DNA of 45,742 nucleotides from a virus, in the IMG/VR virus record IMGVR_UViG_3300009085_001438; one strand, written 5' to 3'. A program made the position numbers and the translations under genes. Under the pieces are notes generated by a model. It was not told the DNA's origin, made no database searches, and was given only the letters and a program-made list of their open reading frames with translations. Shown one piece after another: positions 3,405-29,050 of the stretch (position 1 is the first letter of the stretch; the number at the start of each line of letters is the position of its first letter).

Positions 3405-3451
3405 TGTGCGTTCCTCCTTTAGTTTGTTAGCTTTATCCTCACTACCATTAT

Positions 3452-3493
3452 GTATTAATTATACCAACAAACCAGGAAGAAATCAAGTGTTTT
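3452..3493 (-). promoter_or_regulatory. conserved promoter element copy A (minus strand: CTTGATT-N17-TATAAT, extended -10 TGg)
   Basis: -35 TTGATT (rc of 3481..3486), 17-nt spacer, -10 TATAAT (rc of 3458..3463). One member of a 10-copy repeat family. Confidence 0.5.
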
Positions 3494-3548
3494 GTAGTAT
3501 AAAATGCAAATATTTAGACTTTCAGTTATTATAAAGCACTTACTACAT

Positions 3549-3878
3549 TCATTTATCCTGCATTGCAAGAATTAAAGGGGCAAGGTCCTCTGCATGACTT
3601 AGTACTTCGTCAAAACCGTAGCTGTGACCATCTTGCCAACTAATACTAGCAGCTACTGCAGCAGCTCTTGGCGTAGCTCCGAGACCAATAAAAGCTTGGT
3701 AGAGATCCTCATGGAATTGACTGTCACAAGCACACTGTTTCTGCTGCCACTTGTTCCGGCTAGCTTTTAACTCCACAACTGTCCCGGTAGTTGGATATGG
3801 AGTAGTGTTTGTGTATTGGTTATCTCGAATTTTTTCTTTCATCGTTTCGAAGTCCATAGTACAATCCTCCGTAAGCAA
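3549..3878 (-). CDS. hypothetical protein; paralog of the C-terminal domain of 2829..3404
   Basis: 109 aa sharing the PYPT...FHED...GATP.AA....W.DGH..G..EVL.H motif block with the adjacent gene. Confidence 0.5.
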   Translation of the reverse strand: MLTEDCTMDFETMKEKIRDNQYTNTTPYPTTGTVVELKASRNKWQQKQCACDSQFHEDLYQAFIGLGATPRAAAVAASISWQDGHSYGFDEVLSHAEDLAPLILAMQDK

Positions 3879-3895
3879 TATGTGAGCATAAAAAG

Positions 3896-3968
3896 AGCTG
3901 GCGGCGGGCTACGATCCCACGGCCTCTCGCTTACAAGGCGAGTGCTCTACCAACTGAGCTACACCAGC
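3896..3968 (-). tRNA. tRNA-Thr (anticodon UGU)
   Basis: Minus-strand read GCTGGTG TA GCTC AGTTGGTA GAGC A CTCGC CTTGTAA GCGAG AGGCC GTGGG ATCGTAG CCCGC CGCCAGC T. Perfect 7-bp acceptor, 4-bp D stem, 5-bp anticodon stem, loop CU-UGU-AA. Atypical T-loop ATCGTAG (A54/T58 instead of T54/A58). Confidence 0.7.
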
Positions 3969-3979
3969 TAACCAATTCT

Positions 3980-4015
3980 GCCTTAATTATACCAGTAATG
4001 GAAAAAATCAAGCTT
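3980..4015 (-). promoter_or_regulatory. conserved promoter element copy B (extended -10 TGgTATAAT; -35 TTGATT at only 14-nt spacing)
   Basis: rc of 3986..3991 is TATAAT, preceded by TGg. Sits directly upstream of tRNA-Thr. Confidence 0.45.
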
Positions 4016-4016
4016 T

Positions 4017-6203
4017 TTACACCGGAATTAAATCTTCCTTTAAAGTGATAGTGTATGTAATATCTCCTAATGTCATAGAGTTATTTTCTCTAGACGTGAA
4101 CTCGTCGAACCACTTGTTACCTAAGATGATTGCAAATTTAGTACGCTGCACTTTAGCTCGAAGTGTTGCCAACTCCTTTTGGAGCTTCTTTAACCTACTA
4201 TCTACTTGGGCTAAAGCACTTGAAATGTTTGCACCTTGCACAAATGCACTACTCCAACGAGTAAGTTCCGGCTGTAAAAGCTGCTCTCTTGGGGTGAGTT
4301 TTTTAGATGCAGTAACTTTATGGATAACATCTTCCACTTTTGGTAATGAACTCAAACCCGACATAGAAACCGTAAAAACTTTGGCATAATAGGAATCTGT
4401 AGCTGCTAGGTCTTCTTTTGGCGGGTTAAACCCATTATTCGTTACACCATGCTCTTTAAGATATTCAATTTGATCACTTGTAAGTCCTTCCAACCCGTGC
4501 CGTGTCACAAATACGCCAGCTGTGTCATAAGATGTCTTTAAATACTTTAACACTTTAACCGAAGCTTGCAATTGCAGCATCTTATAGGTATTTTCAAAGA
4601 AAGCGACAGCTGATGTATGACCTTTAGCAATAGCTCGATTCATCACAGGCACTTTGGTTAAATACACTTCGTACACTTCATCCTCTTTCCAGGTTCTGGA
4701 CTGGTCTATCATACCTTCATGCCAGAGTTTTAAAAAGGTAACCTCGGACATTGACATAGGTAGCACTTCTACGTTAGGAAAGCCGTCCCTAACAATAGCA
4801 TAGTTCCTATAGATCCAAGTTGGAAACCAAAGCTCCTTAAATCCCTTTTCCTTGTAGTTTCGTCTTAGCTTAATTTTACCATCGAATCGGGTGAGCACGG
4901 AAAGGTTTAACATCTTTTCATTCCAGGTCACTGAAGCAAACGGGCATTTAACACCACTGTTTGCAACAAAGTCCGGGTAGCCTTCTTTTGTAACAGAAGG
5001 AACTCCAATACGCTTATACTGAAAAGCTGGATGCTGAGGGTAGAAATAAGCATTAGGATCTTCAAGTAACAAATCGACTGCATCTAACAAACAGAATGCA
5101 TCTTCTTTTGGCAAATGTGAAGTGGATCGGCCGTTAATGAAGCGTTTGTTGTGCTCAGAAATTGCACTTTGGAGTCTCTTCTCTACCACACCATATTCAT
5201 CATTAGTGAAAGCATTACTTGTAATGTCAATCAGAGCTTTATCTCCTAAAGTACCTAGCACTTCCAGGGCAACATCAGATTGCATGCGCTGCAAAAGCAC
5301 TAACGCAGCTGCATATGAGCCTTTAACTAATGACTCCGCTTTCCCATTCTGTACATTAGCATCAGTGAATTTTACTTCAGTGCCTTTAGGTGTAGTTGTT
5401 AGAGCATAAAGATACTCTTTCCCTCTACCCCTAGCAACTGTAAAACTAATGCTACCCTTATCATCCGGCTGGTATATATTAACACCAGCTCTAGTTAAAC
5501 TAAACAGAAGCGAAGCACCCTGAAATTCTAAAACATCCACTGAAATCCGGTCACTCTCAACAGAACTTGTTACAAAATCAGTTAACGCAATATCAAATTT
5601 TTCCAAATTATCACTGTGCGTCAAAGAACCCCCGAAAGCTTCAGCCATTTGCGACATTAACTCTTTGTTGTAGTAGTTTCCGTAACCTACCAAAAGGCTC
5701 GCTGTGATAGTTGGACTCACTTCTTTGATAGCCTTAAAAATAGCAATTTTTTCCTTCGGGTAGCTACTAACCACTGGGTAACCGTCTGTGAAAAAACACA
5801 AAGCAAATCGATTACTAAAGATCTGAAGATCCTCGGTAATCGTTTTAGTAGCTGCTAAGATCTCTGAAAAGCAGGTCAAATCTACAGTTGTGCTATTGTT
5901 ACGTATAGCTTGTTCCAGAATAGCATAATCGCTGTCATCAGCTATCTTGAACCCTTTAAGAATGAAGTTGAATTTACCTTCTCCACTAAACCACCCAATA
6001 GTGATAGTGTCTCCAACAGGTAACTTTTTAGCACGCACAATAAGATCCTGCACCAAATCAGGTAGTGTATCATACATAGAACCGGATCTATCATAGATCC
6101 AAATATGGTTAGTTCTACCTACTTCTTCTTTAGTTTCTTCAGGCTTAGTGTTGATCTCTTGCTGAACTAAAAATAAGTGATCTCTAATCTGCAAATATTT
6201 CAT
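4017..6203 (-). CDS. von Willebrand factor A (vWA) domain protein, 728 aa
   Basis: N-terminal HIWIYDRSGSM (DxSxS MIDAS motif) followed by a vWA-like alpha/beta region. The C-terminal ~500 aa have no recognisable motif. AGGAG-type SD. Confidence 0.6.
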   Translation of the reverse strand: MKYLQIRDHLFLVQQEINTKPEETKEEVGRTNHIWIYDRSGSMYDTLPDLVQDLIVRAKKLPVGDTITIGWFSGEGKFNFILKGFKIADDSDYAILEQAIRNNSTTVDLTCFSEILAATKTITEDLQIFSNRFALCFFTDGYPVVSSYPKEKIAIFKAIKEVSPTITASLLVGYGNYYNKELMSQMAEAFGGSLTHSDNLEKFDIALTDFVTSSVESDRISVDVLEFQGASLLFSLTRAGVNIYQPDDKGSISFTVARGRGKEYLYALTTTPKGTEVKFTDANVQNGKAESLVKGSYAAALVLLQRMQSDVALEVLGTLGDKALIDITSNAFTNDEYGVVEKRLQSAISEHNKRFINGRSTSHLPKEDAFCLLDAVDLLLEDPNAYFYPQHPAFQYKRIGVPSVTKEGYPDFVANSGVKCPFASVTWNEKMLNLSVLTRFDGKIKLRRNYKEKGFKELWFPTWIYRNYAIVRDGFPNVEVLPMSMSEVTFLKLWHEGMIDQSRTWKEDEVYEVYLTKVPVMNRAIAKGHTSAVAFFENTYKMLQLQASVKVLKYLKTSYDTAGVFVTRHGLEGLTSDQIEYLKEHGVTNNGFNPPKEDLAATDSYYAKVFTVSMSGLSSLPKVEDVIHKVTASKKLTPREQLLQPELTRWSSAFVQGANISSALAQVDSRLKKLQKELATLRAKVQRTKFAIILGNKWFDEFTSRENNSMTLGDITYTITLKEDLIPV

Positions 6204-6779: not shown

Positions 6780-7925
6780 TTAACTCCTTTCTCTAACGAC
6801 TTTCTTCAGCACCACATCAGATAGATAATTTAAGGATGCTGATCCATCATTATTAAAATACCAGATATTTCCATGATCATCTTGCTCAAGCGCTTTTGCT
6901 AAAATGCTTACCTTCTCTTCACACGTGCATTGACTAGCTAATCGTTTATGAATTTGCATTTGATCCAATCCGCGCTTTATTAGCCGCTCCATTTGTAAGT
7001 GAGCCGGACAAGCAACAACTAGCACATTATTATTACAAATGTGGTTAAGGTGTACTTCAGCTATGAGTGCGAAATTTAACACATACAACCCAGGACCTTC
7101 CGATAATTTAGCACGAATGCCATGTAATGTGCAAGGTGTTAAAAGAGTTGTCAGTGTTTTAACTGCTGAGGAACTCCCAAACACCTTTTCAGCTAACACT
7201 TTGCTGTTGATTGTTTCTGTTTTTGGATTTAGGATAATCTCCTTTCCAAAAGCTCTTATAACCTTTTGACGAGCTTCCATATACATGGCATTGCATGTAG
7301 AGTGATAAATTTCTTGAGTAATTTCATCCAAGTCAATCTCGTAAAACGGTATGGAAGATGTAGAGGTGTGTATATCTCGAAGCTTAGCTGTTATGTAGCT
7401 CTTTCCCACTCCGATTTCACCTGTAACACCTAAAATGTACTGCTTGTTTACTTTTGCTTCCAATGCTTCTTTCACTGCAAGAGGTGCACGAGGCGTAATA
7501 TCCAGGTGTAACTTTACCCTTTGTTTGAGTGTGGTGGATGATAGATCTGCATATGCAGGATCTGTGGGTAAAAATATTGTTTGAATATCTGGAGCTAGGA
7601 AAGCATTAACTTTGTACAGGGCACTTTCTGCTTCATAATCTTTCGCATTTCGGAGTCCACGCACAATTGTTTTTGCTCCAATTGTTTTCGCAAAATCTAC
7701 GGTTAACCCAGTGTAGGAACGGACACGTACATTAGGGAGATGTTTTAATGCATGTACTGCTAATGTTAATCTGTCAGCAATATTGAGAGTGGCTACCTTA
7801 TCCTCACTAGCTCCCAGCCCAACAAATACTGAGCCGAACATTGAAGCGGTACGTTCAATGATGTTTATGTGCCCTTGATGAATGGGATCCCCGCTTATTG
7901 GAATTAAACAAATACTAGTCTGCAC
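6780..7925 (-). CDS. coaDE: bifunctional phosphopantetheine adenylyltransferase / dephospho-CoA kinase (CoaD-CoaE fusion)
   Basis: N-term IPISGDPIHQGHINIIERTA matches the PPAT (T/H)xGH nucleotidyltransferase signature (E. coli YPGTFDPITNGHLDIIERA). C-term YILGVTGEIGVGKSY is a P-loop, and NVLVVACPAHLQMERLIKRG matches CoaE (YIVALTGGIGSGKST ... RVLVVDVSPETQLKRTMQRD). GTG start with AAGGAGG SD. Confidence 0.8.
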   Translation of the reverse strand: MQTSICLIPISGDPIHQGHINIIERTASMFGSVFVGLGASEDKVATLNIADRLTLAVHALKHLPNVRVRSYTGLTVDFAKTIGAKTIVRGLRNAKDYEAESALYKVNAFLAPDIQTIFLPTDPAYADLSSTTLKQRVKLHLDITPRAPLAVKEALEAKVNKQYILGVTGEIGVGKSYITAKLRDIHTSTSSIPFYEIDLDEITQEIYHSTCNAMYMEARQKVIRAFGKEIILNPKTETINSKVLAEKVFGSSSAVKTLTTLLTPCTLHGIRAKLSEGPGLYVLNFALIAEVHLNHICNNNVLVVACPAHLQMERLIKRGLDQMQIHKRLASQCTCEEKVSILAKALEQDDHGNIWYFNNDGSASLNYLSDVVLKKVVRERS

Positions 7926-8193
7926 ACAGCCTCCTTATTGCAGCTTTTAATTGGCTGCATAAAGTTTTCTTAGCTGTAACCGGGACGTGCAAACGTAAAT
8001 CCAGCTGATATGCATCAGTCAAGTCATGTGCAACTGAAACTAGCGTCCGATTGTCTTTTAGTTCATCAACTAACCACTTGAGCAAACTAAGTGCTTGATA
8101 CGTCACTTCATTTGAGCTAGTTACACCTAAAGCGTACTGCAGCTCTTTCATGAAATCTGCATTTACCTTAAAGTGCACTTCTACTTTTTTCAT
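7915..8193 (-). CDS. hypothetical protein
   Basis: Minus ORF; likely start at Met16 (MKKVEVHF) preceded by GGAGAAAT. Confidence 0.4.
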   Translation of the reverse strand: MKKVEVHFKVNADFMKELQYALGVTSSNEVTYQALSLLKWLVDELKDNRTLVSVAHDLTDAYQLDLRLHVPVTAKKTLCSQLKAAIRRLCAD

Positions 8194-8411
8194 TATTTCT
8201 CCGCCAAACAATCTCCATTGGTGCAATAAACATCCCAAGCATACTTACATACTTTATTATCTTTACAGATATAGCATGTGTAGTTTTCTTTAGCTAACGG
8301 AGGGTCATCAGACACTAGCTCCTCTTCAGCCACTTGTGCTTGAGCTTCATACACCTTTTTGAGGTTTTCTAAGTAATCTTTTGTGACCTTAATCTGTATT
8401 CGTTTTTGCAT
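8193..8411 (-). CDS. Cys-rich small hypothetical protein
   Basis: 72 aa containing CYICKDNKVCKYAWDVYCTNGDC. Confidence 0.4.
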   Translation of the reverse strand: MQKRIQIKVTKDYLENLKKVYEAQAQVAEEELVSDDPPLAKENYTCYICKDNKVCKYAWDVYCTNGDCLAEK

Positions 8412-8841
8412 TTATATTTTCACATACCGGAGAATCCGTCGGATTTGCTGTCTGCCATTGCCAAACAATAATTGCTACAGCTTGTCTTGAAACTAACACA
8501 CCGCCAGCTGTTTCTACTAGTTTAGCTATCTTTGCAACCTCTTCAAGCAAACTTGGAGCAATATCAGCTTGGGAAGCTACTCCTAGTACATTCTTAAGCG
8601 CATTTAAAGTCAACCAGTTCATGTGATTTCCCTCCTTAAGCAGCCCTTTTAAATCTTCCCAAATATGAGAATTTAAAATAAACCGCATTGCTTGTCTGTA
8701 GTTATACCCAAGACGTTGTGGGTGAGTTTTATTTGTTTTAAACATCCATCCATAAGGATACTTTCGACAGAAGTACACCTCACATGGATACTCTAATTTC
8801 TTTGAAAGCTCTGTTTGGAGTTGAATTGATAACTGAGACAT
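8389..8841 (-). CDS. hypothetical protein
   Basis: 150-aa ORF. Confidence 0.45.
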   Translation of the reverse strand: MSQLSIQLQTELSKKLEYPCEVYFCRKYPYGWMFKTNKTHPQRLGYNYRQAMRFILNSHIWEDLKGLLKEGNHMNWLTLNALKNVLGVASQADIAPSLLEEVAKIAKLVETAGGVLVSRQAVAIIVWQWQTANPTDSPVCENINAKTNTD

Positions 8842-9591: not shown

Positions 9592-10485
9592 TTAGGTTGT
9601 TTTTTCTCTATTCCTTTTTGCTAGAGTTTCAAAGTGTGCTGCTTCTAACGCATTCGTTTTCTCCTTCTTACTGCATCTCCAACATACGCTTTGCACCTCC
9701 CCGTGTCTCTTTGTTCTCATAAAATTGCGCTTTGGTTGCTTACATATAGGACAAATACCTGTTAACATATTTCTCGTTACCTTTTGATCTGAGTCTAGCA
9801 CGTACTCATCTATAGCTTGTATTAGTTGTTTAACCTGCTCCGAAGTAAATGCTTCTTTTCGTTTCGTGCATCTACTAACTTGCCAATGTTTAATATAGAT
9901 TTGCTCCGCTTGTTTTACATAATCAAATACTTGGCAATAGCCAAGAGGTAGGGTTTTAAATCTAATGCTCTTATTTTTTGCAAGTACCGTTTGCAAAATA
10001 CGCTGCTCAAACACAACAGTGTTTAAATCATTAGCTTCAATCCATTGATCTATTAAAGATTTTACATTTGCATTGTTTGCAAAATACAACGTACCACTTA
10101 AAAGATGGTTAATGTGATTGATAAAAGCTGCAATATCAACTTGCATACCACTCAAAGTATCAAATAATTCTGGGTAACACTCCACCGTCGCATCAGCATC
10201 TAAAAAGACAACCGGGGTATTCACTCTGCTAAGAGCACGTTTTATAAAACGTGCTTTATAATCCGTGCAAGCTTTCCAGCTACCTAAATTAGGAATACCT
10301 TCAATATAGTAACTTAGTGGTAAAGCTTTTAAACTAGCTAATAACCGATATACAGCATCAATATACTCTTTTTCAAAGGTAAAATAGGAAATAATCGTAA
10401 ATTTAGCATTATCATTTCTGCGCGAAAATACATTAATCATTGTAGTATTGCTCTTTAATGTTACCATTTTTATGGGATACTGCAT
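9592..10485 (-). CDS. putative nucleotide-sugar glycosyltransferase (DxD) with C-terminal zinc finger
   Basis: VVFLDADATVECYPELF is a DxD motif. C-terminal CPICKQ...CWRCSKKEK forms a zinc ribbon. Confidence 0.45.
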   Translation of the reverse strand: MQYPIKMVTLKSNTTMINVFSRRNDNAKFTIISYFTFEKEYIDAVYRLLASLKALPLSYYIEGIPNLGSWKACTDYKARFIKRALSRVNTPVVFLDADATVECYPELFDTLSGMQVDIAAFINHINHLLSGTLYFANNANVKSLIDQWIEANDLNTVVFEQRILQTVLAKNKSIRFKTLPLGYCQVFDYVKQAEQIYIKHWQVSRCTKRKEAFTSEQVKQLIQAIDEYVLDSDQKVTRNMLTGICPICKQPKRNFMRTKRHGEVQSVCWRCSKKEKTNALEAAHFETLAKRNREKTT

Positions 10486-14442: not shown

Positions 14443-15012
14443 TTATCCCTTAAGGCTTTCTGTAATATGTTTATCCACAGCTCCTTCATTGGTATTGTAT
14501 CCACCTGCGTATATCCCAGCCTTTTCACTGGCACTAATCACAAATTGACCTGCACAAGCTCCCACTTCAAGAATCACTGGACCGTTCAAAACATAAATAA
14601 GCCCGTTCACATGACCTTTAAACCCGGAATCATACAAACCACTCGTTACTAAAACACCGTTACGATTCAAACTGGACCTAGTTTGTACCCATCCTGCAAA
14701 CCCTTCAGGCATTTCCACATAAAGATCCGTTGTGTAATCATATACTCCAAGCTTTAAGTACCAACTTCTGTAATCCGCTGTTATCTCCTTTTTATCTGGA
14801 GTCGTGCCTATTACAAGTCTTCTTACATGAGGCTGTACTAGCTTACGTGGCCTATGCTTCTTATCCTTTGCAGTAATAATACACGTAGAATTTGAATCTA
14901 ACTCATACAACGCATGTACCGGAATATCTATGCCATTTGGTTGAATTTGTGCATCTTTGATATTACCTCTCAACCAACCTTCAACTATTGCTTTTTTTGG
15001 ATTTATAAACAT
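14443..15012 (-). CDS. dcd: dCTP deaminase / dUTPase-superfamily protein
   Basis: MFINPKKAIVEGWLRGNIKDAQIQPNGIDIPV aligns with E. coli Dcd [35 protein letters not shown]. Downstream TRSSLNRNGVLV matches GRSSLARLGLMV. Start placed at the internal Met matching the Dcd N-terminus. Confidence 0.7.
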   Translation of the reverse strand: MFINPKKAIVEGWLRGNIKDAQIQPNGIDIPVHALYELDSNSTCIITAKDKKHRPRKLVQPHVRRLVIGTTPDKKEITADYRSWYLKLGVYDYTTDLYVEMPEGFAGWVQTRSSLNRNGVLVTSGLYDSGFKGHVNGLIYVLNGPVILEVGACAGQFVISASEKAGIYAGGYNTNEGAVDKHITESLKG

Positions 15013-15523
15013 GTGACTTACCCTGCTTTCTTCGTGCTTTACGTAAAAAATACAAATCTCCAATTACTTTTATTTCCATAAAAACAAAAACAAATAAAAC
15101 ACTAAATGTTGAATGCACAGCTAGCTGTAAGAGAAAAAATGCAATTACAAGAGAATGCCAAAACACTGCAGTACTTAATACCATTTGGAGTAAGAGTTTG
15201 CACCTGTCTGCCAATTGCAAGCATACATTCCTTTACTAAAAAGCTTGTCTAATTCCTGTAATAAATTTTATATAACAACAATTGACCTCTGTAACAGTGC
15301 CGGCTTCTCTCTCGATAATCCCGCAAAGCTCATCCTCCCTGACTGTTCTAGTCCATTCAATCCTTTAACGTGTAACATAATTACTTCTCCTGCTTACTTA
15401 TTATTGTGCTGATTTTCACACGCTTCACAGGTGCACTCTACGCATAGCACTGCACCACACTTTTCACACACACATACGTATCAGCTTCTTCCACTTCTTC
15501 TAAGCAATTACTGCAAATTTCCA

Positions 15524-16165
15524 TCAGATTCCTTTCTCGGATATAGCATTTTTAACGTTTTCGTAAAACTCTAACTTTGCATGATCTTCCTTGTCCAAAA
15601 ATGCCCCGGAGAGCTTAGTGGTTTTCATTACGCTAGGGTGTTCCACACCTCGCAATTTAACACACAAATGCTGAGCTGAAATATGCACTGCTACCCCGAG
15701 ATTGCCCTCACACACTTTATCAATGTATTGATGAATTTGCATTGTGAGTTCTTCTTGAATTTGAGGTCTTCTTGCAAACCACTCCACTATTCTATTTATT
15801 TTACTTAACCCAATCACTTTACTATCTGGCGTAGGTATGTAAGCTACATACGCGTGGCCAAAAAAACTCACATGGTGGTGTGCACAAAAACTATTCACTG
15901 TAATATTACCTTGAAACACCATACCATCATAGTGATTCATATTATCAAAAGCTGTAATAACAGGAGGTGTTGTGTAGCATCCTTGGGCGATTTCATTAAG
16001 CCACATTTTTGCAACCCGCTTAGGTGTGTCTTTCATGTTTGGATCCGCTTGCCAGTTAAACCCAAGAGCATCTAAAAACTTTGCGTATGCAGCTTCAGCT
16101 AAACGCAACCTTGTTTTAATTGCTTCTTGTGAAAGTATTTCGTTGCTATTACAAAACTCTAACAC
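15524..16165 (-). CDS. folE: GTP cyclohydrolase I
   Basis: HHVSFFGHAYVAYIP...SKVIGLSKINRIVEWFARRPQIQEEL...HLCVKLRG matches the FolE core (CEHHLV..G.A.VAYIP...GLSKINRIV..FA.RPQVQE). Confidence 0.9.
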   Translation of the reverse strand: MLEFCNSNEILSQEAIKTRLRLAEAAYAKFLDALGFNWQADPNMKDTPKRVAKMWLNEIAQGCYTTPPVITAFDNMNHYDGMVFQGNITVNSFCAHHHVSFFGHAYVAYIPTPDSKVIGLSKINRIVEWFARRPQIQEELTMQIHQYIDKVCEGNLGVAVHISAQHLCVKLRGVEHPSVMKTTKLSGAFLDKEDHAKLEFYENVKNAISEKGI

Positions 16166-16176
16166 TCTTCTTCCTC

Positions 16177-17079
16177 CTACTGTCTAAGTAATTTTGCACA
16201 GTGTATCTGGTAGGCACATAAGTTGTGGTCCAACAGTTCAAAACTAGTTGCACGCACAGGGCAAATATCAATCCCACCTCGTCTCGTGTAAACAGCTGCT
16301 ACCATTAAATCCGAAGGTTTGCAATAGGTAAACAATCTTTGATAAATCATTTCTACAACTTCTTCATGAAAATGGTTTTCATTCCTGAATGAAACAATGT
16401 ACTGCAGCAAAGACAACTCAGATAATTTGTGGTAGGAACGCATGTATACAAATAACGTGCCCCAATCAGGCTGATGAGTAATTTTACAGTTGCTCCGAAG
16501 TACATTAGTTGTGCATGCAAGGATGTTTGGTGCATCTTGTTCCACGCTTTGTAATAGTGCGGGATCCTCTTTGAAAGATGTAAACTTGATGCCACCTACT
16601 CCTTCTAATTGTTCCAGCACTGTCCATTCACGTTGAAAAACAGGTGCGTTGCCTGCTTCTTCAAAATATTCCACAGCTACTCGCACCTCTAAAAGTTCAC
16701 TCAGATCCCTTCGAATACAAGCAAGCACGCCTCGCAATGCCTCATCTTTTGTAGGCCCCATCTGTGTCATGTTGAATGAATTTAAGTACAGCTTTAAGCT
16801 CTTACTCTCTACTATATACTGACTATAAGATGGGTAGACGATTTTAGCCACTCCGCTTACAGGTAAATTATTATTGGTAAGAAAACTCACTTCGTAAGCA
16901 TTCCACACATCGTACCCAATAAATGGAAGATCAGTATCCTCTATACCGTACTGCAATCTATTTTCCGAACGCGGAACGCGAACTAGAACGCTAGGATCAT
17001 ATTTTACAGGTGCGTCAACGCGTTTACCTAAAATGTGCTCTTCAGCTTTGGTGGCTGTTTTTGGTGTTGGTTTTAACAT
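16177..17079 (-). CDS. queF: NADPH-dependent 7-cyano-7-deazaguanine (preQ0) reductase, type II (two-domain)
   Basis: ESKSLKLYLNSFN (the QueF motif), SNCKITHQPDWGT (catalytic Cys / QPDW), YIVSFRNENHFHE and YTRRGGIDICP align end to end with E. coli YqcD/QueF. Confidence 0.9.
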   Translation of the reverse strand: MLKPTPKTATKAEEHILGKRVDAPVKYDPSVLVRVPRSENRLQYGIEDTDLPFIGYDVWNAYEVSFLTNNNLPVSGVAKIVYPSYSQYIVESKSLKLYLNSFNMTQMGPTKDEALRGVLACIRRDLSELLEVRVAVEYFEEAGNAPVFQREWTVLEQLEGVGGIKFTSFKEDPALLQSVEQDAPNILACTTNVLRSNCKITHQPDWGTLFVYMRSYHKLSELSLLQYIVSFRNENHFHEEVVEMIYQRLFTYCKPSDLMVAAVYTRRGGIDICPVRATSFELLDHNLCAYQIHCAKLLRQ

Positions 17080-17090
17080 AATTAATTCCT

Positions 17091-17906
17091 TTAAAAAGCT
17101 TTATAGTTTACGTATTCTCCATAATTTACAAACTCTCTGAACCGTTGTATATTGTGCATGATACGCTCTACATCTTGATTCCCTTTTGGTTCATAATTTA
17201 ACAATTCAGGTATTTTAATTGATTTCTTTTCCCATAAGCCGAAATCGTCATATTCAATTCCACAAATTCCGTGCACGATAGGTGAAGAGGTGTCTAAAGA
17301 TCTAATCCACTTATACGGAGCATAAAAACTGAACTCTCTTGGATTAGAAGCTCCTAGCAAATGATGAGGTTTTTCGGTATTTATAATGCCATCTTTAGCT
17401 AACTTACCTAATAAACCAATTCGCCCTAACATCCAGGAAATGCATTTACTAGGATGAGGGGTACTTTTCTCGTAATAACTATAATCAAAGCTAATGCCGA
17501 TCTTATCTACATGTGCATCCATGTATTTATAACATTTTACAATTTCTTCATAAGTTTTTCCTTGGACTACTCCAATCTTTTTTCCAGGTAAATTGTATTT
17601 AGCTAACCACATTTGACAGTTTTCTATAGTGCGATTACAGTCTTCAAGCACATCCGGGATAATATAGTAAGTAGGTTGAAGCTTCTCTATCCAAGAAGCA
17701 TAATTATCTCCAGAGTAAGCTTGCCCGAGCTCTTGAACGCTATTATCTAAAATCACCTCTCGCCCAAGTTTAAGACATTTACTAAAAAAGTCTCGGTACT
17801 TTGCACACTCTGAAAAGAGGTGCACAAGCGCGTAATCATAATCATTAAAATACAAGCTTGCCTCTAAGAAACTTAAAGGAGCTTCGTGGGATATCTTAAT
17901 AGACAT
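17091..17906 (-). CDS. dpdA: TGT-family (tRNA-guanine transglycosylase-like) protein lacking the zinc subdomain; DpdA-like DNA 7-deazaguanine transglycosylase candidate
   Basis: VILDNSVQELG resembles TGT LTDSGGFQ. GVVQGKTYEE resembles GIVQGGVFEN. EKPHHLLGASNP resembles DKPRYLMGVGKP. IRSLDTSSPIV resembles IDMFDCVLPT. No CxCxxC...H zinc site. Sits immediately downstream of folE-queF. Confidence 0.55.
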   Translation of the reverse strand: MSIKISHEAPLSFLEASLYFNDYDYALVHLFSECAKYRDFFSKCLKLGREVILDNSVQELGQAYSGDNYASWIEKLQPTYYIIPDVLEDCNRTIENCQMWLAKYNLPGKKIGVVQGKTYEEIVKCYKYMDAHVDKIGISFDYSYYEKSTPHPSKCISWMLGRIGLLGKLAKDGIINTEKPHHLLGASNPREFSFYAPYKWIRSLDTSSPIVHGICGIEYDDFGLWEKKSIKIPELLNYEPKGNQDVERIMHNIQRFREFVNYGEYVNYKAF

Positions 17907-17908
17907 AG

Positions 17909-18304
17909 TTAACTTTTCCTTCTGAAAAAAGCTTTTGTGGTTCTAATTGCTTTACAGATAGTAGTACCAATTACTCTAAAGTCATCCCCAAAACCAAAAT
18001 CTTCCGTAATGTGCCTCATCGGCGGAGGCGTGGGAGGTGGCGGAGGTGTGTGACTCTGTCCTATACCTCCTTTTGGAGCTTTCGGTTCTACTTCCACTGC
18101 ACCTTTTGGCTGGTATCCGCAAATGTTTGCAAGATCATGGGCTTGTTGCTCTACTAGATTTAAAACAGTGTTTGCTCTGCTTCGAATCTTTTTAATCTGC
18201 TCTTGCTCCTCTGAAGTGCACTCCTCCCACACACTTTCAGAGTAACGCTCTGAATCAGGCAAGTAAGAGAGTAGTTCTTGACATAAATCTTTCAAAACTT
18301 TCAT
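17909..18304 (-). CDS. hypothetical protein with a poly-proline tract
   Basis: 131 aa containing HTPPPPPTPPPMRH. Confidence 0.4.
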   Translation of the reverse strand: MKVLKDLCQELLSYLPDSERYSESVWEECTSEEQEQIKKIRSRANTVLNLVEQQAHDLANICGYQPKGAVEVEPKAPKGGIGQSHTPPPPPTPPPMRHITEDFGFGDDFRVIGTTICKAIRTTKAFFRRKS

Positions 18305-18315
18305 TTGATTTACCT

Positions 18316-19140
18316 CTAAGAAAGTGTAATGTGTATAATATCTTGTATTTCGGGGTTGCCATATGTTGCATGGCCTGTTCGAACAACTAAATTTGGAAGT
18401 GCATAATAGGTGCCAGCACTATGCGTGTGCCCGCACAGCACGGTAAGGTTTTTAGCAGGAAAGGCTTTCATTACTTCTTTTAACGTGTCTCCAACAGCTT
18501 TACAACTAAAATGAGGCAAATAATAGTCTGAAGAAGCGTGGCCCTGATGCCAAGCAGCTTCTGCAAACGGAGGCACATGCATTACCGCAAAAACATGATC
18601 ATACTCCTTAAATGCTTCTAACAAAGCAGTGCGAAACAACGCTGCTGATTCATCTCCTAGAGCATTTAACTTTCTAAGACGCTCTTCTTTAGTAAGATAC
18701 TGCAACTCTTTAATTTGATAGTAATCATTAAGGGTTACGCTTGAATTTTTATAGTCTCCATAGCGGCCATCCGCCCAGGAGTCGTACCCGATCAAGCAAA
18801 CCCTTGTAGATAGAGGCACTAGACCTTTAAATGGCAAATAAAATAACCAGGATTCCTGGGGGATTTCTACAACCGCTTCTCGCGTTTTGCTTATTGAACT
18901 ACCATAACAATCATGGTTACCTAGCACAAAATAGATTGGAGTACGTACTATATTAGCTAACAAGTTTAAATCATGACACAAACGCGTGCTTGTAGATATG
19001 TCTCCACTAATAATAATGCCAGCTAGTAATAAATTATCTAACCGTGCACCGAGTAGTTTAATTTCATCTATGGTGCAGTGATCTAAATGTATATCAGTTA
19101 ACCAAGCTAATTTCACGTTTACTCTTCCTATAAATTTCAA
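18316..19140 (-). CDS. calcineurin-like metallophosphoesterase
   Basis: Motif series LTDIHLD (DxH), GDISTS (GD), GNHD, HVPPF and GHTHS. Confidence 0.8.
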
Positions 19141-20087
19141 CCAAGTAAAAAAGCTGTATATGTTTTTCGCAGTCCCTCGCCAAGTGTTGTAGTATGGTGC
19201 CAGCCTAGCTTATGTATTTTAGATACATCTAATTCTTTTTTAGGTGTGCCATCCGGTTTAGATGTGTCATAAATTATTTTACCAGAATAACCAACCACAT
19301 CTCTAATCTTCTCTGCAAGATCCTTAATAGAAATTGACTCTCCTGTGCCTACATTGATTGGCTCGGAGGAATTATAATTCTCTAACAAGAAAACACACGC
19401 ATCAGCTAGATCATCTACATACAAAAATTCTCGTAAAGCTTTACCTGTTCCCCACACTGCAACTTCAGGCTTTCGCTTTATTTTAGCTTCATGGAATTTT
19501 CTTATTAATGCAGGTAATACATGTGCATTTTCTAAGTGGTAGTTATCCCTTGGCCCATAGAGATTTGTAGGCATAGCACAAATAAAGTTTGTACTGTATT
19601 GCTTGTTGTAAGCTTGGCACATCTTGATACCGGCAATTTTAGCTACCGCATATGCTTCATTAGTCTCTTCTAGGGGACCTGTAAGTAGGTATTCCTCTTT
19701 AATTGGCTGCGGGCAATCTCGAGGGTAAATGCAGGAACTGCCAAGAAAGAGGAGTTTTTTTACTCCATAAACATTAGCAGCATTAATTACATTAGTTTGA
19801 ATCATTAAGTTATGATAGATGAAGTCTGCCGGGTAAGTGCTGTTCGCATAAATGCCTCCTACTTTAGCTGCCGCTAAAATAATATACTCCGGCTTTTCAT
19901 AATCTATCACTTTATGTACAACAGCTTGGTCAGCTAGATCAAACTCAATGTGCGGTTTTATAACAACATCTCGATACCCGTTCAGTGCTAATTTCCGCAC
20001 AATAGCTGAACCCACTAACCCAGTGTGCCCCATCACAAAAATTTTACTGCACTTATCCATGTTACTCTTGCTCACCTTCAAGTGCAT
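19137..20087 (-). CDS. fcl: GDP-L-fucose synthase (GDP-4-keto-6-deoxy-D-mannose 3,5-epimerase/4-reductase)
   Basis: [47 protein letters not shown] and [30 protein letters not shown] are almost collinear with E. coli Fcl ([29 protein letters not shown]). Confidence 0.9.
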
Positions 20088-20951: not shown

Positions 20952-21029
20952 AAACACACCTCCTGTGAATAATTTTAATCAATTTACAGATTTTAGTGTG
21001 AAATGTTGGGAGGAAACAAAGAAAAAGCG

Positions 21030-21058
21030 GGAAGAGCTTTCCCGCTTTTTATGTGATA
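21030..21058 (-). terminator. rho-independent terminator (GCGGGAA-GAGC-TTCCCGC followed by a T-run; bidirectional)
   Basis: Perfect 7-bp GC stem. On the minus strand it is followed by TTTTTCTTTG, directly downstream of the 21072..21434 stop. Confidence 0.5.
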
Positions 21059-21449: not shown

Positions 21450-21947
21450 CTAATTGACCATAATAAGTGTGGTTGACCCTGGTGCATAATCAACCACATT
21501 AACATTCGGAAACACACTTAACACTATGTTTAAATAGGTGTCCCAGTCCCCACCGCCTCTGCAACACCCCATGAACTTAGGCATAAACAGAGCACAAAAC
21601 TTTGACATAACAGGATGGGTTTTGAGCTCCTCTAAAGCAATACGCACCTTATCATACTTTGTTGGCATTTCGTTACAGCACTGTAAGCATTGCCCGAAAA
21701 TATTAGCTACATAAACGTTCTTCCTTATCTCTACCAGCTGAGCTTTACCCAGTAACTCTTCTGAGGTGAATTGATTACACAGATCTAAATATTCTTTGTA
21801 CACTTTCGGCCATTTTTGCCTTATAGATAAAGCTATTCCTGCACCCATGATACCTTGGTTATTCACTTGATGCATTAAAACAAGAGGTAACGTAGAGTCT
21901 TGAATAACATCTGGAACTACTAATAAATCACCCTTCCAGGTTTTCAT
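21450..21947 (-). CDS. Macro-domain (ADP-ribose binding / ADP-ribosyl hydrolase-like) protein
   Basis: LVLMHQVNNQGIMGAGIALSIRQKWP matches the macro-domain N...G.MGAGIA core, as in OARD1/TARG1 CRMGAGIA and nsP3 NAAN..L.GGGV...KKWP. 165 aa. Confidence 0.65.
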   Translation of the reverse strand: MKTWKGDLLVVPDVIQDSTLPLVLMHQVNNQGIMGAGIALSIRQKWPKVYKEYLDLCNQFTSEELLGKAQLVEIRKNVYVANIFGQCLQCCNEMPTKYDKVRIALEELKTHPVMSKFCALFMPKFMGCCRGGGDWDTYLNIVLSVFPNVNVVDYAPGSTTLIMVN

Positions 21948-23557: not shown

Positions 23558-24178
23558 CTAATAAATAGCTCCGCTTTTGTACACAGAAACTATTTCATCT
23601 CTAGTTAAAAGTGCACAAGCTTTAACACCTACTTTTTCAATATTAGCCATCCCATCATTTTCTTGCCGATCCACTACAACAATAGCATGCTCTACAATTA
23701 ATCCAAATTCACGAGCTTTTTCAATGGCTGTAATTGTAGAAGCACCAGTTGTAACTACATCATCTACGATTACTGCATGCTCGCCTGGAACAACCGGGCC
23801 TTCTATACTTTTTTTAGTCCCATGATCCTTTTGGGCTTTACGCACAATAAAAGCTTTAACCACCTTTCCCGGACCGCCTGTGCGTAAAAGCTCCATCTGA
23901 TAATAAAAAGCTACAGCAGTCGCAATAGGATCAGCACCCATTGTCAACCCGCCAACGGCTTCAAAATGCACATCTTTCAAGATTTCCGTTGTCATGGTAG
24001 CAATCAAATGCATGCCGGATGGGTGCAGTGTGGCTTTACGACAATCAATATAATAGTTGCTTAACCCGCCTGAAGAAAGAGTGAATGGAGTTTCTTCATT
24101 GTACAGAAAAGCCTTTGTAGATATTAATAATTGAATTAAGGCATCTTTTTGAGATTGTAATGTAGACAATTGCGACAT
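23558..24178 (-). CDS. pyrE: orotate phosphoribosyltransferase
   Basis: FTLSSGGLSNYYIDCRKA, KAQKDHGTKKSIEG and AVIVDDVVTTGASTITAIEKAREFGLIVEHAIVVVDRQE align with E. coli PyrE (FTLKSGRKSPYFFN; KEAKDHGEGGNLVG; VMLVDDVITAGTAI...LISLDRQE). Confidence 0.8.
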   Translation of the reverse strand: MSQLSTLQSQKDALIQLLISTKAFLYNEETPFTLSSGGLSNYYIDCRKATLHPSGMHLIATMTTEILKDVHFEAVGGLTMGADPIATAVAFYYQMELLRTGGPGKVVKAFIVRKAQKDHGTKKSIEGPVVPGEHAVIVDDVVTTGASTITAIEKAREFGLIVEHAIVVVDRQENDGMANIEKVGVKACALLTRDEIVSVYKSGAIY

Positions 24179-24703: not shown

Positions 24704-25804
24704 CTAATTTGTTGTTAAAAATGCTTGAAATAACCTTTCTTTTGCACTATCAGTCATGTTATAGATAAAATCCCCTAATTTCGCCCCTTTTCGAAGAGCA
24801 AACATGATGTGCTGTACTGGACCTTTCACAGCTAAAGCAAACTCTTTCTGATCCTCAATGCAGTTCGTGCATGTGAATAATCTACCAACCTCTTTTACAA
24901 TAGCTGCGTAAGCAGTTACGTAAGGTTGAAAATACTCCCGATCTTCAGGGAAAGAACTCAGGTACTCCTCATGGTCTTGAGAGCATACTAACGATACAAT
25001 TCTCTTAACTGACAATACTCCATTACATCTTAAGTGTGCAACAGCTAAATAAGCTGGATTTTTAACTTTTATCCGCCATTGCTTCTCGGGCCAATAGCAC
25101 ACATAACCCTCATCCAAAGGAGGTAATTCTCTTAAGGATTCTACAAGCTGAGGTATGGTGTCAAAGCGAAAATAAGGCGGTATGGAAACATTGAACTGTT
25201 TAGCGTAATACTCAAGATCCGCTAAGGCTATATCTTTGCCTGTTACACGATTCCGGGCATTTAACAAATAAATATCAGGGTTAGAATATCTCGTAACAAT
25301 TCGCGTCTCAGGAGAAACTAATTCAAATGAAAAAGTTAGATCTTCTGGTAAAACCATGCGCTGAAAAAAATCTTGGGTAGTTGCACCCAGCACACCTTCA
25401 AAAATAGATCTAAAGGAGTTACCTAAAGCAGAGTTCCCCTCTGCGAATGCCATACTACGCGTACTGCATTCCCATTGGTTAGCATGGTATACATTAAGCA
25501 AAGATCCGTCTATCTTTTTAAAGCAAAATGCTTGTGTGATGGCAAATTCTTCGTGTTTTGGATCTTCCGTGTAATTAAAAAACCTATCAAAAGGCCGGCA
25601 CAAAACTCTATAATCAGGTAGGGATAGAATTAAACCTCGGCACTCTCTAACAATCGGATCATGCTTTGGGGATTCAATTTGATCATAGTTTAACACAGCT
25701 CGATCATCATAATACCGCACTTCAATGTGCAAAGTGTCTTCTAAAGATTTCAAAGGGTGTGTTTTTAGGTACTTTAAGATTTCCATGTGAGTCGGGTTCT
25801 CCAA
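24704..25804 (-). CDS. RNA ligase, T4 Rnl1 family
   Basis: ECRGLIL, RPFDRFFNY and FKKIDGSLLNVY (nucleotidyltransferase motif I KxDG) align with T4 Rnl1 ECRGIMF, RPMEKFFNL and LTKEDGSLVSTY. Similar length (366 aa). Confidence 0.75.
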   Translation of the reverse strand: MENPTHMEILKYLKTHPLKSLEDTLHIEVRYYDDRAVLNYDQIESPKHDPIVRECRGLILSLPDYRVLCRPFDRFFNYTEDPKHEEFAITQAFCFKKIDGSLLNVYHANQWECSTRSMAFAEGNSALGNSFRSIFEGVLGATTQDFFQRMVLPEDLTFSFELVSPETRIVTRYSNPDIYLLNARNRVTGKDIALADLEYYAKQFNVSIPPYFRFDTIPQLVESLRELPPLDEGYVCYWPEKQWRIKVKNPAYLAVAHLRCNGVLSVKRIVSLVCSQDHEEYLSSFPEDREYFQPYVTAYAAIVKEVGRLFTCTNCIEDQKEFALAVKGPVQHIMFALRKGAKLGDFIYNMTDSAKERLFQAFLTTN

Positions 25805-26296: not shown

Positions 26297-26710
26297 TTAC
26301 TGCTTACAAAACTGCGATATGTTAGCTGTGCGGGTTTGAACCTTTTCTGCTAAACGTGCTAGAAATACTTGCAAAAACTCGAAGTTGGTCACCGATACAA
26401 ACATTACATTGTTTACATGACTTTTACTATAGTAGCACATGCTGTATTCAATAAACTCTACCGCTGACATGCATAAGCTAATAGGTAAGACTAGCGTGTT
26501 CAATGCATACAGTGTAAGAGGTTGCCCATTTATCTCAATTACAGTTATCATCTGCATTCGTTGGGTAGCTAAGTTTATTCCCTGCTCTTCATTAAATGCT
26601 TCTTTCTTAGAACATCTACACCAACCAAACCTCAAACACCCATCGTCATCTATATCTGCCACGAATAACCCGACAGGTTTTTGTTTTTCCCGTATCCATT
26701 GAATCACCAT
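26297..26710 (-). CDS. hypothetical protein
   Basis: 137-aa ORF. Confidence 0.45.
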   Translation of the reverse strand: MVIQWIREKQKPVGLFVADIDDDGCLRFGWCRCSKKEAFNEEQGINLATQRMQMITVIEINGQPLTLYALNTLVLPISLCMSAVEFIEYSMCYYSKSHVNNVMFVSVTNFEFLQVFLARLAEKVQTRTANISQFCKQ

Positions 26711-27399
26711 AATTCCTGCTCCAAAACTGCTGAGATGTAATTGTAAAGAAGTTCCGGCAGAGCCTCTCTAGATTGCTCTACGTGCATGTGCTCACTTAAG
26801 ATAAGTGCTTTTTCTTTGCACCACTCCAAGCAATTAGCTACTATAAGATCTGCTCTTGAAGCTTTTCTACTCTCTCTTGCAATCTGTAAGAGCTCTTCTT
26901 CAGATTTGCCCACTTCTAATTTGAATTTCACAAGAAAGCCTCTGTAACCCCACTCACCCCGGATTTTATCTATAAGTTTCGGTGTTTGTTCAAGTTCAAG
27001 AAATAACTTAGAGTGTTTTGAGGAGATTTTAGTAGCAGCATCCACTTGCTGCAAAGACACTCCATCGTCTTGGAACGTGTGTGTTGCTACCACTCTATAG
27101 TCACTTACTGCAGCTGAGTGAACAACAGCATCATAATTTCCTGCCTGGATTTGAGTCTGCATTAAAGCAGCTAATTCATCAAATGTTCTGTAAGGGAACA
27201 CCACCTTTGGATGGTGCTTATAATTATAATGTGTTGCTTTAGCTAATTCCGGGTTAGATGTTATCAAAGTAACATTAGCGTTTTGGCTTGCAAAATACTC
27301 AGCAATCATTGACCCCGTGGTGCCTTTAAAAATGTTTGTAATAGCACGTACTTTATCAATAGGTGTTTGTGTAGCTCCAGCTGTTATTAGAACACGCAT
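26704..27399 (-). CDS. coaB: phosphopantothenate-cysteine ligase (CoaB domain, stand-alone)
   Basis: MRVLITAGATQTPIDKVRAITNIFKGTTGSMIA...ANVTLITS aligns with the E. coli Dfp CoaB half [32 protein letters not shown]...ANVTLVSG. Start set at MRVLITAG, preceded by AAAAGGAA. Confidence 0.85.
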   Translation of the reverse strand: MRVLITAGATQTPIDKVRAITNIFKGTTGSMIAEYFASQNANVTLITSNPELAKATHYNYKHHPKVVFPYRTFDELAALMQTQIQAGNYDAVVHSAAVSDYRVVATHTFQDDGVSLQQVDAATKISSKHSKLFLELEQTPKLIDKIRGEWGYRGFLVKFKLEVGKSEEELLQIARESRKASRADLIVANCLEWCKEKALILSEHMHVEQSREALPELLYNYISAVLEQELW

Positions 27400-27412
27400 A
27401 AAATTTCCTTTT

Positions 27413-27748
27413 TCATATTTGTAGCATGCCAGAAGGCTGCTGAATAATAGGTTTTGGATACCAGTCAAACACATCTAATAATGTTTTTTGCAGAATACAG
27501 AGTGGGCGCATCTCCCGGCTCTCTACAATCACTTTGGGGTAATCAAACACTAAATTACCAACTCGGTCCGATATGGTGATATTGCGCAAATAGAGTTGCG
27601 GTTGATCCTGAACAACACAACTTAACATAAACACCGCAGTTGCACATGCAAGAACAGCACTCCAATACATACTCCGACGATCTTTATAGATACCGTATCC
27701 AAAATACACTAAACCTGCTAGCAAGTACAGCAATGCAAGGAGATCCAT
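27413..27748 (-). CDS. small membrane protein
   Basis: MDLLALLYLLAGLVYFGYGIY...AVLACATAVFMLSCVV gives two TM helices. Confidence 0.4.
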   Translation of the reverse strand: MDLLALLYLLAGLVYFGYGIYKDRRSMYWSAVLACATAVFMLSCVVQDQPQLYLRNITISDRVGNLVFDYPKVIVESREMRPLCILQKTLLDVFDWYPKPIIQQPSGMLQI

Positions 27749-28070: not shown

Positions 28071-28610
28071 TCACCTCTTTTTGTTTAGCTGTTCTTGAAT
28101 GAAAGCTATAACGTCTTTGGTGGAAGGTAATTTACCTATACCTACCGCACCACACACTAAATGGCCCGTACCGGGCTCCATAATTGTCCACCCAAAGCTT
28201 TTTAATGTATTTACATTTCTCTGTGTAATTGGATTTAACCACATGTTAGTATTCATAGCTGGAAAGAGAAACAACTTATGCACTGAATACTCTACTGCTA
28301 CAATTGTGGATGTTGGTAAATCGTCTGCAATACCTGCAGCTATTTTTGCTATAATGTTAGCTGTAGCTGGTGCAACTATGATTATCTTATTATGCTGTGC
28401 TGCATGCACATGCACTGGTGTATTTTTATCGTCCACGTACAGTGTATCACAAATATTTGCTAAAGAAGCTTCCGTGACAAAATTCAAAGCCTCTTTAGTA
28501 GCCATAGCATTCACTTCACATAATAAGGCTTTTTGTAAGCCGGAAATTATATCCAAACTCTTGTATGCAGCTATTCCTCCGGACACTACTACCAATATAG
28601 GTGAACTCAT
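28071..28610 (-). CDS. coaC: phosphopantothenoylcysteine decarboxylase (CoaC flavoprotein, stand-alone)
   Basis: MSSPILVVVSGGIAAYKSLDI...VAPATANIIAKIAAGIADDL...FPAMNTNMW aligns with the Dfp N-terminal domain KKIVLGVSGGIAAYK...LAPATADLIARVAAGMANDL...LPAMNQQMY. Start placed at the internal Met, preceded by AGGAGG, which gives a 4-nt overlap with the upstream gene. Confidence 0.85.
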   Translation of the reverse strand: MSSPILVVVSGGIAAYKSLDIISGLQKALLCEVNAMATKEALNFVTEASLANICDTLYVDDKNTPVHVHAAQHNKIIIVAPATANIIAKIAAGIADDLPTSTIVAVEYSVHKLFLFPAMNTNMWLNPITQRNVNTLKSFGWTIMEPGTGHLVCGAVGIGKLPSTKDVIAFIQEQLNKKR

Positions 28611-29050
28611 TTTGTGCCTCCTAGCAACATGTCTTGGAGGAAAGGGTCTGTAGCGTGATTTGCAAGACATTCAGCAGCTACACTCTTGTTTACCGCAAGG
28701 GCTGCTCTTGCAATTCTATCAGTTACATTTGCACCTAAGCTTAATAGTTCTTCAATAATTTCAGCTGTAATGCGCCGCCGCTCACCTAAAATAAAACAAT
28801 CTGTTTTCCACTTCCGGAACTCACCAAGTTTGTGGGGGTTCTCATACACTTGAGATTCCGGAGTAAGTGTTACGGACCTAATCCAAGGCCCATACTCTAA
28901 AAATGCCAATATATCTTCACGTGCAAAATACATTCCACCAGGTGCACAATCTCCGGAAGGATTAAATGGAAGTGCATCTTTATTGAAACCTGTGCGGTAT
29001 TGCATACCTCCATGTTTTTCATCTTCCTTTAAAATCTTGTAGTTTTGCAT
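28607..29050 (-). CDS. hypothetical protein
   Basis: 147-aa ORF. Confidence 0.45.
   Translation of the reverse strand: MQNYKILKEDEKHGGMQYRTGFNKDALPFNPSGDCAPGGMYFAREDILAFLEYGPWIRSVTLTPESQVYENPHKLGEFRKWKTDCFILGERRRITAEIIEELLSLGANVTDRIARAALAVNKSVAAECLANHATDPFLQDMLLGGTK

Follow-up and report, generated by a model that had tools for sequence, protein, structure and literature searches.

The 45,742-nucleotide contig of the IMG/VR virus record IMGVR_UViG_3300009085_001438, taken here in its entirety and called the window, carries three minus-strand genes that very probably make up a DpdA3-type module for modifying phage DNA with 7-deazaguanine bases. The genes encode a DpdA3-type transglycosylase, a bimodular NADPH-dependent preQ0 reductase (QueF) and GTP cyclohydrolase I (FolE). 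As co-directional open reading frames (ORFs) they fill exactly the stretch 15524-17906, to which a preliminary description made from the letters of the DNA had assigned preQ1-type 7-deazaguanine DNA modification. That assignment is supported by the analysis presented here and agrees with what has been published on the function of the nearest characterised homologues.

The 271-amino-acid (aa) protein belongs to the DpdA3 subfamily, which was defined in 2023 on the phages phiST, CP220 and immuto (NAR 51:9214; PMC10516641). By tblastn it is 55% identical to the DpdA3 of immuto (gp206; E 9e-89), 44% identical to the CP220 homologue (E 1e-48) and 25% identical to the phiST homologue (E 8e-6), the latter being a 259-aa protein that position and length identify as gp042, or CGPG_00065. 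The predicted structure of the window protein matches this phiST protein with template modelling (TM) scores of 0.83/0.86 (Foldseek, BFVD), whereas other phage types of tRNA-guanine transglycosylase (TGT) or DpdA reach only 0.45-0.6. The family comprises 3,742 clusters at 90% identity and 2,919 representatives at 50% identity (E <= 1e-3), nearly all about 260-290 aa long. In all three characterised DpdA3 phages guanine is fully replaced: immuto DNA carries fdPreQ1 and phiST DNA carries 2'-deoxy-7-deazaguanine (dDG), with no dG peak in either, and CP220 is cited as 100% dADG (PMC10516641). The earlier label of 'DpdA-like' was right as to a DNA-type transglycosylase, but the DpdA3 subfamily had gone unrecognised. 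We also considered whether the protein might group with bona fide TGTs or conceal a zinc subdomain, as the preliminary description had asked; it has no zinc subdomain and groups with DpdA3 proteins at TM 0.83-0.90, not with bona fide TGTs or the other phage DpdA types.

An AlphaFold2 model built from 40 homologues is confident, with a mean predicted local distance difference test score (pLDDT) of 87.6 and a predicted TM score (pTM) of 0.87, and when it is searched against the PDB with Foldseek the best 50 matches are all tRNA-guanine transglycosylases, with a lowest E of 2.5e-8. Residue conservation was read from 71 aligned representatives (35-55% identity). D54 (in LDNS) and D85 (in PD) are invariant among them, D205 (in SxDTSxP, which reads SLDTSSP in the window protein) is kept in 70, and Q115-G116 is nearly invariant; within HLLG, residues H182, L184 and G185 are invariant and L183 nearly so. 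As candidate catalytic roles, D54 would be the general acid/base, D85 would serve in base recognition and D205 would be the nucleophile. The profile alignment pairs HLLG...SxDTSxP with VHLLG...SIDSTTP of bacterial DpdA, where the counterpart of D205 would be the nucleophile Asp256, by a count on the printed alignment that allows for the expression tag; the roles of the DpdA catalytic residues, including that of Asp256, have been described (PMC10164549). An hhalign comparison with the single E. coli Tgt sequence, used for motif correspondence and not as proof, pairs GVVQGKTYEEI with GIIQGSVYEDL and KPHHLLG with KPRYLMG, corresponding to the GxxQG and KPxxLxG motifs. The CxCxxC zinc motif is present in none of the 71 family members, in which C125 is the only conserved cysteine, and the tail past the putative nucleophile has a median length of 57 aa in the family; in E. 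coli Tgt, which has CDCYTC at residue 302, this tail measures 111 aa. Given the missing CxCxxC motif and the short tail, the description of this protein as a Zn-less TGT-fold transglycosylase is correct: the predicted fold is TGT-like, the catalytic motifs are kept and the zinc motif is absent.

The two biosynthetic enzymes had likewise been called correctly. FolE, assigned to type IA, matches Pfam PF01227 (E 3.7e-48) and the E. coli and Yersinia FolE structures (E about 1e-35), and its zinc-ligand motifs CAHHH and HLCVK align with C110/H113/C181 of E. coli FolE. QueF contains both Pfam domains of the two-domain type (QueF_N, E 4.4e-31; QueF, E 1.2e-22) and can be aligned from one end to the other with V. 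cholerae QueF 3bp1 (E 5.7e-49). All three hallmark motifs are kept in this alignment: ESKSLKLY, which fits the NADPH consensus E(S/L)K(S/A)hK(L/Y)(Y/F/W), SNCKITHQPDWG with the catalytic Cys, and the His/Glu motif NHFHEE. Both proteins score below the cutoffs of the corresponding NCBIfam equivalog models (FolE 179.8 against 202; QueF 251.7 bits against the trusted cutoff of 293.45 of TIGR03138), as is to be expected for divergent phage copies. Two of three phage QueFs tested complement an E. coli delta-queF strain, and the reduction occurs at the level of the base (PMC10516641).

In the pathway that we propose, FolE would convert GTP to dihydroneopterin triphosphate, the first step of 7-deazaguanine synthesis, and QueD, QueE and QueC, encoded outside the contig or drawn from the queuosine pathway of the host, would carry this intermediate to preQ0. 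The phage QueF would then reduce preQ0 with NADPH to the free base preQ1, and DpdA3 would put the deazaguanine into phage DNA in exchange for guanine, presumably by the double displacement of TGT and DpdA enzymes, in which D205 would act as nucleophile and D54 as general acid/base. Judging from the three characterised DpdA3 phages, replacement is expected to be essentially complete and would shield the DNA from restriction enzymes that have G in their sites.

Several observations weigh against this interpretation. The 271-aa protein has no Pfam or NCBIfam match, only phrog_19058, whose function is unknown, and comparison of the single sequence and two family profiles with the PDB sequences gave nothing significant; the top sequence match of a family profile is DpdA, at a weak E of 0.18. 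Among relatives, the Pfam TGT domain (PF01702) is matched in 7 of 40 members with a best E of 0.034, level with an unrelated GAF match, and hhalign aligns the family profiles with E. coli Tgt at a probability of 11-32%, which falls short of proof of superfamily. As these sequence links are below threshold, membership of the TGT superfamily rests on predicted structure and motifs. No DpdA3 has been biochemically shown to be active, on DNA or otherwise, and reconstitution in E. coli failed (PMC10516641). Genes that are absent from this contig were sought with Pfam on nearly all ORFs of at least about 100 aa and by six-frame tblastn with diverse queries; neither approach found queC, queD or queE in the 45.7 kb, bearing out what had been said of them before, and in most of the related loci these genes lie within 10 kb of DpdA3. 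Finally, in nearly all relatives that have QueF an amine-tailoring gene adjoins DpdA3, so that a genome with un-capped dPreQ1 would be atypical for the family.

The relatives in question are 80 related IMG/VR viral loci, with gene counts made over 84 sequences. Their canonical gene order is QueC ... QueD QueE ... PRTase FolE PRA-PH DpdA3 DpdN kinase QueF ... PolA, where PRTase stands for phosphoribosyltransferase and PRA-PH for phosphoribosyl-ATP pyrophosphohydrolase; DpdN is found in 72 of the 84 sequences, the AAA_28 kinase in 70, QueF in 70 and PRA-PH in 44, and DpdA3 also clusters with FolE, QueC, QueD and QueE. The nearest non-identical homologues (59%) have the canonical layout too. Dispersal of the pathway is not unusual, since in several relatives, among them L044 and L048, queC, queD, queE and FolE are likewise absent within 10 kb on either side of DpdA3. 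The window has only five genes in common with the 80 loci, namely the trio, a dUTPase-fold gene and an Fcl-like gene, which places the module in a backbone unrelated to that of the related DpdA3 loci. Homologues of the dUTPase-fold gene lie between QueC and QueD in six loci (L022, L055, L057, L074, L078 and L080), and Fcl homologues lie in or near the DpdA3 cluster in eight (L007, L014, L022, L026, L044, L045, L068 and L071).

For the final base, un-capped dPreQ1 (2'-deoxy-7-aminomethyl-7-deazaguanine) is the simplest prediction, given that no formyl-, methyl- or acetyltransferase was detected on the contig, and we offer it tentatively, at somewhat less than even confidence. The preliminary description had named dPreQ1 as the product; the preQ1 type stands, while the final base is a simplest prediction, the nearest characterised relative having fdPreQ1 by way of DpdN. 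The same module might instead yield a capped preQ1 derivative, its tailoring enzyme being encoded off the contig or by an unannotated ORF on it, which we consider a serious though doubtful possibility. DpdN adjoins DpdA3 in those 72 related sequences, and most of the few relatives without DpdN carry other candidates. In L075 a gene of the PF03692 YkgJ/DpdM type with a CxxCxxCC motif (8128-8799) overlaps the DpdA3 start, a hint of fully methylated mdPreQ1; L059 has a strong GNAT domain beside DpdA3 (3327-4853), and in L014 (6123-7079) and L088 (4161-5099) the AAA_28 kinase is fused to a weakly matching GNAT domain, which hints at an N-acetyl-preQ1 DNA base, undescribed so far. Immuto itself had been predicted to contain dPreQ1 and proved to be 100% fdPreQ1 (PMC10516641), and the contig is part of a genome of probably 150 kb or more. 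Against capping, the scanned window ORFs contain no PF00551 formyltransferase of the DpdN kind, no DpdM domain (PF03692 YkgJ/DUF3109) and no GNAT domain, and tblastn gave no match to the DpdN of immuto or L091 at E<0.3, nor to DpdM-like or GNAT queries, two weak matches having been rejected on inspection. Moreover, the tailoring gene of the relatives adjoins DpdA3, whereas in the window QueF directly follows DpdA3, and L021 and L023, the only relatives that resemble the window in this respect, likewise have no tailoring gene that we could see.

A different question is the level at which DpdA3 acts. The enzyme might swap the base on a free nucleotide (e.g. dGMP), which would then be re-phosphorylated and incorporated by the polymerase, a pre-replicative route that would explain 100% replacement but that we regard as unlikely. 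It draws on the neighbourhood of DpdA3 in all three characterised phages, where a nucleoside triphosphate pyrophosphohydrolase or HD phosphohydrolase and a P-loop kinase-like gene stand beside it: an HD plus P-loop protein (gp055) and a Tmk-like protein (gp057) in CP220 (L087, 7862-10355), the PRA-PH/MazG-like gp208 and the AAA_28 protein gp203 in immuto (L001, 19279-22002; kept in 44 and 70 of the 84 sequences), and MazG (gp039) and an ATPase (gp041) in phiST (L093, 3097-5259). This flanking pair hints that the pathway may have a nucleotide-pool arm. DpdA3 also has neither the zinc subdomain nor the Ins8 appendage of bacterial DpdA, the parts by which DpdA and TGT bind nucleic acids are missing from it, and no member of the subfamily has yet been reconstituted (PMC10516641); the metallophosphoesterase and the dUTPase-fold gene that flank the window module add weak evidence. 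The authors who defined the family, however, propose post-replicative insertion (PMC10516641), and DpdA1, DpdA2 and bacterial DpdA all act on DNA. In the window no kinase or MazG homologue lies near DpdA3, and the phosphoesterase, of which the related loci have no orthologue, may adjoin the module by chance. Besides, phage replication modules often contain MazG, dUTPase and kinase genes. The support comes from gene neighbourhood, and the isoelectric point (pI) and charge of the DpdA3 family, considered as a clue to DNA binding, are uninformative because E. coli Tgt is equally acidic. It would be a further and quite improbable step to suppose that all DpdA3 proteins are nucleotide-level exchangers (dGTP to dGMP, swap, kinase, polymerase), with this contig a stripped-down version that retains the metallophosphoesterase, DpdA3, QueF, FolE and the dUTPase-fold protein and makes an un-capped, positively charged dPreQ1 genome. 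Far less probable still is a tRNA-directed role, in which the phage would raise the supply of preQ1 and have its TGT-like protein introduce the queuosine modification into tRNAs of the host or its own. In favour of it are the queuosine-pathway chemistry, the TGT-like fold and the tRNA-Asn(GTT) encoded on the contig, but the missing zinc subdomain and the steady link of the DpdA3 subfamily to DNA modification make such a role unlikely.

Among known systems the DNA-modification module of immuto is the closest to that of the window. Its DpdA3, bimodular QueF and FolE are orthologous to the window proteins at 55%, 48% and 52% identity, and it shares the minimal Zn-less DpdA3 architecture, the preQ1-type pathway and a large phage as carrier. 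In immuto, unlike in the window, genes for DpdN, an AAA_28 kinase, a MazG-like PRA-PH and a PRTase are interspersed among those of the cluster, and QueC, QueD and QueE lie within 16 kb. CP220 (gp056) and phiST (gp042) have a DpdA3 of the same subfamily, but without QueF they stop at bases derived from 7-carboxy-7-deazaguanine (CDG; PMC10516641), whereas the QueF of the window steers the pathway to preQ1. The phages that combine DpdA1 or DpdA2 with QueF (Cellulophaga phiSM, Vibrio VH7D) likewise use a phage QueF and a DNA transglycosylase to arrive at dPreQ1-type DNA; their transglycosylases, however, are of another subfamily (TM <= 0.6, BFVD), and only a small fraction of G is modified in these phages, counts being given per 10^6 nucleotides (PMC10516641, Table 1). 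Bacterial DpdA (Salmonella Montevideo, PDB 7ui4) inserts preQ0 into DNA as part of the Dpd restriction-modification system and modifies under 0.1% of G. It has about 415 aa, a CXCX2CX22H zinc site, the insertions Ins1-Ins8 and a partner ATPase, DpdB, whereas the 271-aa window protein has neither zinc site nor insertions and is 15% identical to it. Bacterial Tgt is likewise a TIM barrel and has its catalytic motifs in the same order (D...D...QG...xLxG...D); the window protein is 12% identical to it, shorter by ~100 residues, has no zinc subdomain and no PF01702 match at threshold, and in the loop after strand 6 reads ISFDY where Tgt has GGLAVGE.

A system of this kind was already published in 2023, and the window module is an ordinary new member, unusual only in that no amine-capping enzyme was detected with it. 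It adds one more uncultured phage to the published family and shows that the DpdA3, QueF and FolE trio can occupy a backbone unrelated to that of immuto-like phages. It is also a minimal case, being among the few sampled clusters of DpdA3 with QueF in which no amine-capping, kinase or MazG-type gene is detectable beside the transglycosylase. As such it offers a compact construct for reconstituting a DpdA3, with which one could ask whether the substrate is DNA or a nucleotide and whether every G of a genome can be replaced by bare dPreQ1. The relatives surveyed suggest in addition that further undescribed preQ1 derivatives, e.g. a GNAT-made N-acetyl form, may exist in phage DNA.

The genes of the module run in the order DpdA3-QueF-FolE (Table 1). 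The spacers between DpdA3 and QueF and between QueF and FolE are 11 nt each and contain the Shine-Dalgarno (SD)-like sequences AGGA and GGAGG; packed this tightly, the three genes are surely co-transcribed. Of the translational coupling claimed for them previously, the tight packing holds, but there is no overlap, and any coupling across such spacers would be looser than had been stated. The tight gene string exceeds the trio, with the short-chain dehydrogenase/reductase (SDR), the metallophosphoesterase and a 131-aa ORF upstream and a small Cys-rich ORF downstream. The SDR stop and the metallophosphoesterase gene share a 4-nt overlap, and the 131-aa ORF, judged from its position, is co-transcribed with DpdA3; it has no match in Pfam, PHROG or NCBIfam, and its homologues are confined to contigs of the same phage. 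A link between the metallophosphoesterase and the module is possible, by analogy with other DpdA3 phages, in which the equivalent position is taken by a phosphohydrolase of another fold, and is weakly supported, no orthologue having been found across the 80 related loci. The dUTPase-fold protein, probably a nucleotide-pool enzyme, matches the PRK02253 dUTPase model with an E of 1.5e-20, under the cutoff of that model.

Table 1. Features of the DpdA3 module and its surroundings in the 45,742-nucleotide window
Feature	Position	Strand	Details
DpdA3-type transglycosylase	17091-17906	minus	271 aa; minimal Zn-less TGT-fold TIM barrel (predicted)
QueF, bimodular (type II) NADPH-dependent preQ0 reductase	16177-17079	minus	300 aa
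FolE, GTP cyclohydrolase I	15524-16165	minus	213 aa; GTG start, 8 nt past GGAGG
131-aa ORF	17909-18304	minus	proline-rich linker; stop 2 nt ahead of DpdA3 ATG
Calcineurin-like metallophosphoesterase	18316-19140	minus	PF00149 E 2.1e-9
GDP-L-fucose-synthase-like SDR (Fcl)	19137-20087	minus	PF01370 E 1.2e-67; NCBIfam GDPFucSynFcl 472.6 bits, cutoff 500
dCTP-deaminase/dUTPase-fold protein	14443-15063	minus	PF22769 DCD E 1.2e-11; ~460 nt downstream of FolE
Terminator-like hairpin	21022-21050	minus	strong; 12-bp stem, then T-run

Regulatory elements were sought around the module as well. The terminator scan was a consensus scan only and returned 11 terminator-like sites in the window against 5.7 +/- 2.8 expected, and the promoter scan found no more sites than in shuffled sequence; for this reason only the terminator-like hairpin in Table 1 is put forward, as a plausible and likely upstream boundary of the transcription unit. 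Neither a preQ1 riboswitch nor any other Rfam element that might regulate the operon was found, the Rfam matches in the window being three tRNAs only. The small Cys-rich ORF (15385-15526, minus), whose ATG overlaps the TGA of FolE, is broken where the reading frame shifts, at a (TG)5 run; joined, the two frames would give a multi-CxxC zinc-ribbon-like peptide of ~47 aa, and the region is identical in an independent Logan assembly (L002).

The source of the contig is a large uncultured myovirus-like phage, and the contig is a fragment of a genome much larger than 45.7 kb. This view follows from a 728-aa ORF that matches phrog_2426 (E 1.5e-127) and of which 504 phage records contain a homologue, the genomes among the matches listed measuring 150-250 kb, together with the three tRNAs and the dense genes on one strand. 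When the same phage was sought in other assemblies through DpdA3 and the end genes, only shorter pieces of this contig were found, and a megablast of the region against the phage collection gave no match. Ahead of 34 of the 67 genes of at least 80 aa (51%) there are SD-core motifs, against a background of 14%, which suggests a host that uses Shine-Dalgarno initiation and lies outside the Bacteroidota; the closest cultured DpdA3 phages, by contrast, infect Flavobacterium and Cellulophaga.

Some candidates for missing parts of the pathway were examined and set aside. Pfam scans and tblastn found no homologue of MazG/PRA-PH or of nucleoside monophosphate kinases in the window. The ORF at 21450-21947 (minus) gave a tblastn E of 0.06 as a DpdM-like protein, but it has a macrodomain-like GIMGAGIA motif, no CxxCxxCC and no Pfam match. 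The ORF at 9592-10485 (minus) was a candidate HD/kinase protein related to gp055 of CP220 and to the kinase of L014, but BLASTP aligned only 61 residues; this ORF, which has no Pfam match, contains a glycosyltransferase-like DxD motif (VVFLDADA) and then a C-terminal Cys4 ribbon. The PRTase of the window (23558-24178) has no detectable similarity to the PRTase that precedes FolE in the relatives and was not retained as its orthologue.

Further features of the related loci and of the window were noted along the way. FolE2 (PF02649, GCHY-1) takes the place of FolE within the cluster in L091 (6475-7497) and L092 (1607-2629), a case of non-orthologous displacement. Genes of the GDP-mannose/fucose type (MannoseP_isomer cupin, PMM and Fcl/epimerase-like SDRs) recur at the DpdA3 clusters of unrelated phages, including L088 (1601-2643 and 11909-12838), L090-L092 and the window (19137-20087). 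Among the phage tRNAs, tRNA-Asn(GTT) (42139-42212, minus) is a member of the queuosine-modified tRNA set, and the other two are tRNA-Thr(TGT) and tRNA-Glu(TTC). Coenzyme A biosynthesis genes are present as a fusion of a PPAT-like cytidylyltransferase with CoaE (6780-7925, minus) and as a DFP/CoaB-type domain protein and a separate CoaC-type flavoprotein (26704-27474 and 28071-28670, both minus). The contig also encodes a T4 Rnl1-type RNA ligase (24704-25804, minus), a pentapeptide-repeat protein (29792-30373, minus; E 1e-37) and a 626-aa FtsH-like protein with AAA+ and M41 peptidase parts (32516-34396, minus). A 798-aa ORF (37947-40343, minus) resembles the major vault protein, with matches to MVP_shoulder (E 7.6e-28) and Vault_3 (E 1.8e-7) and none in PHROG.

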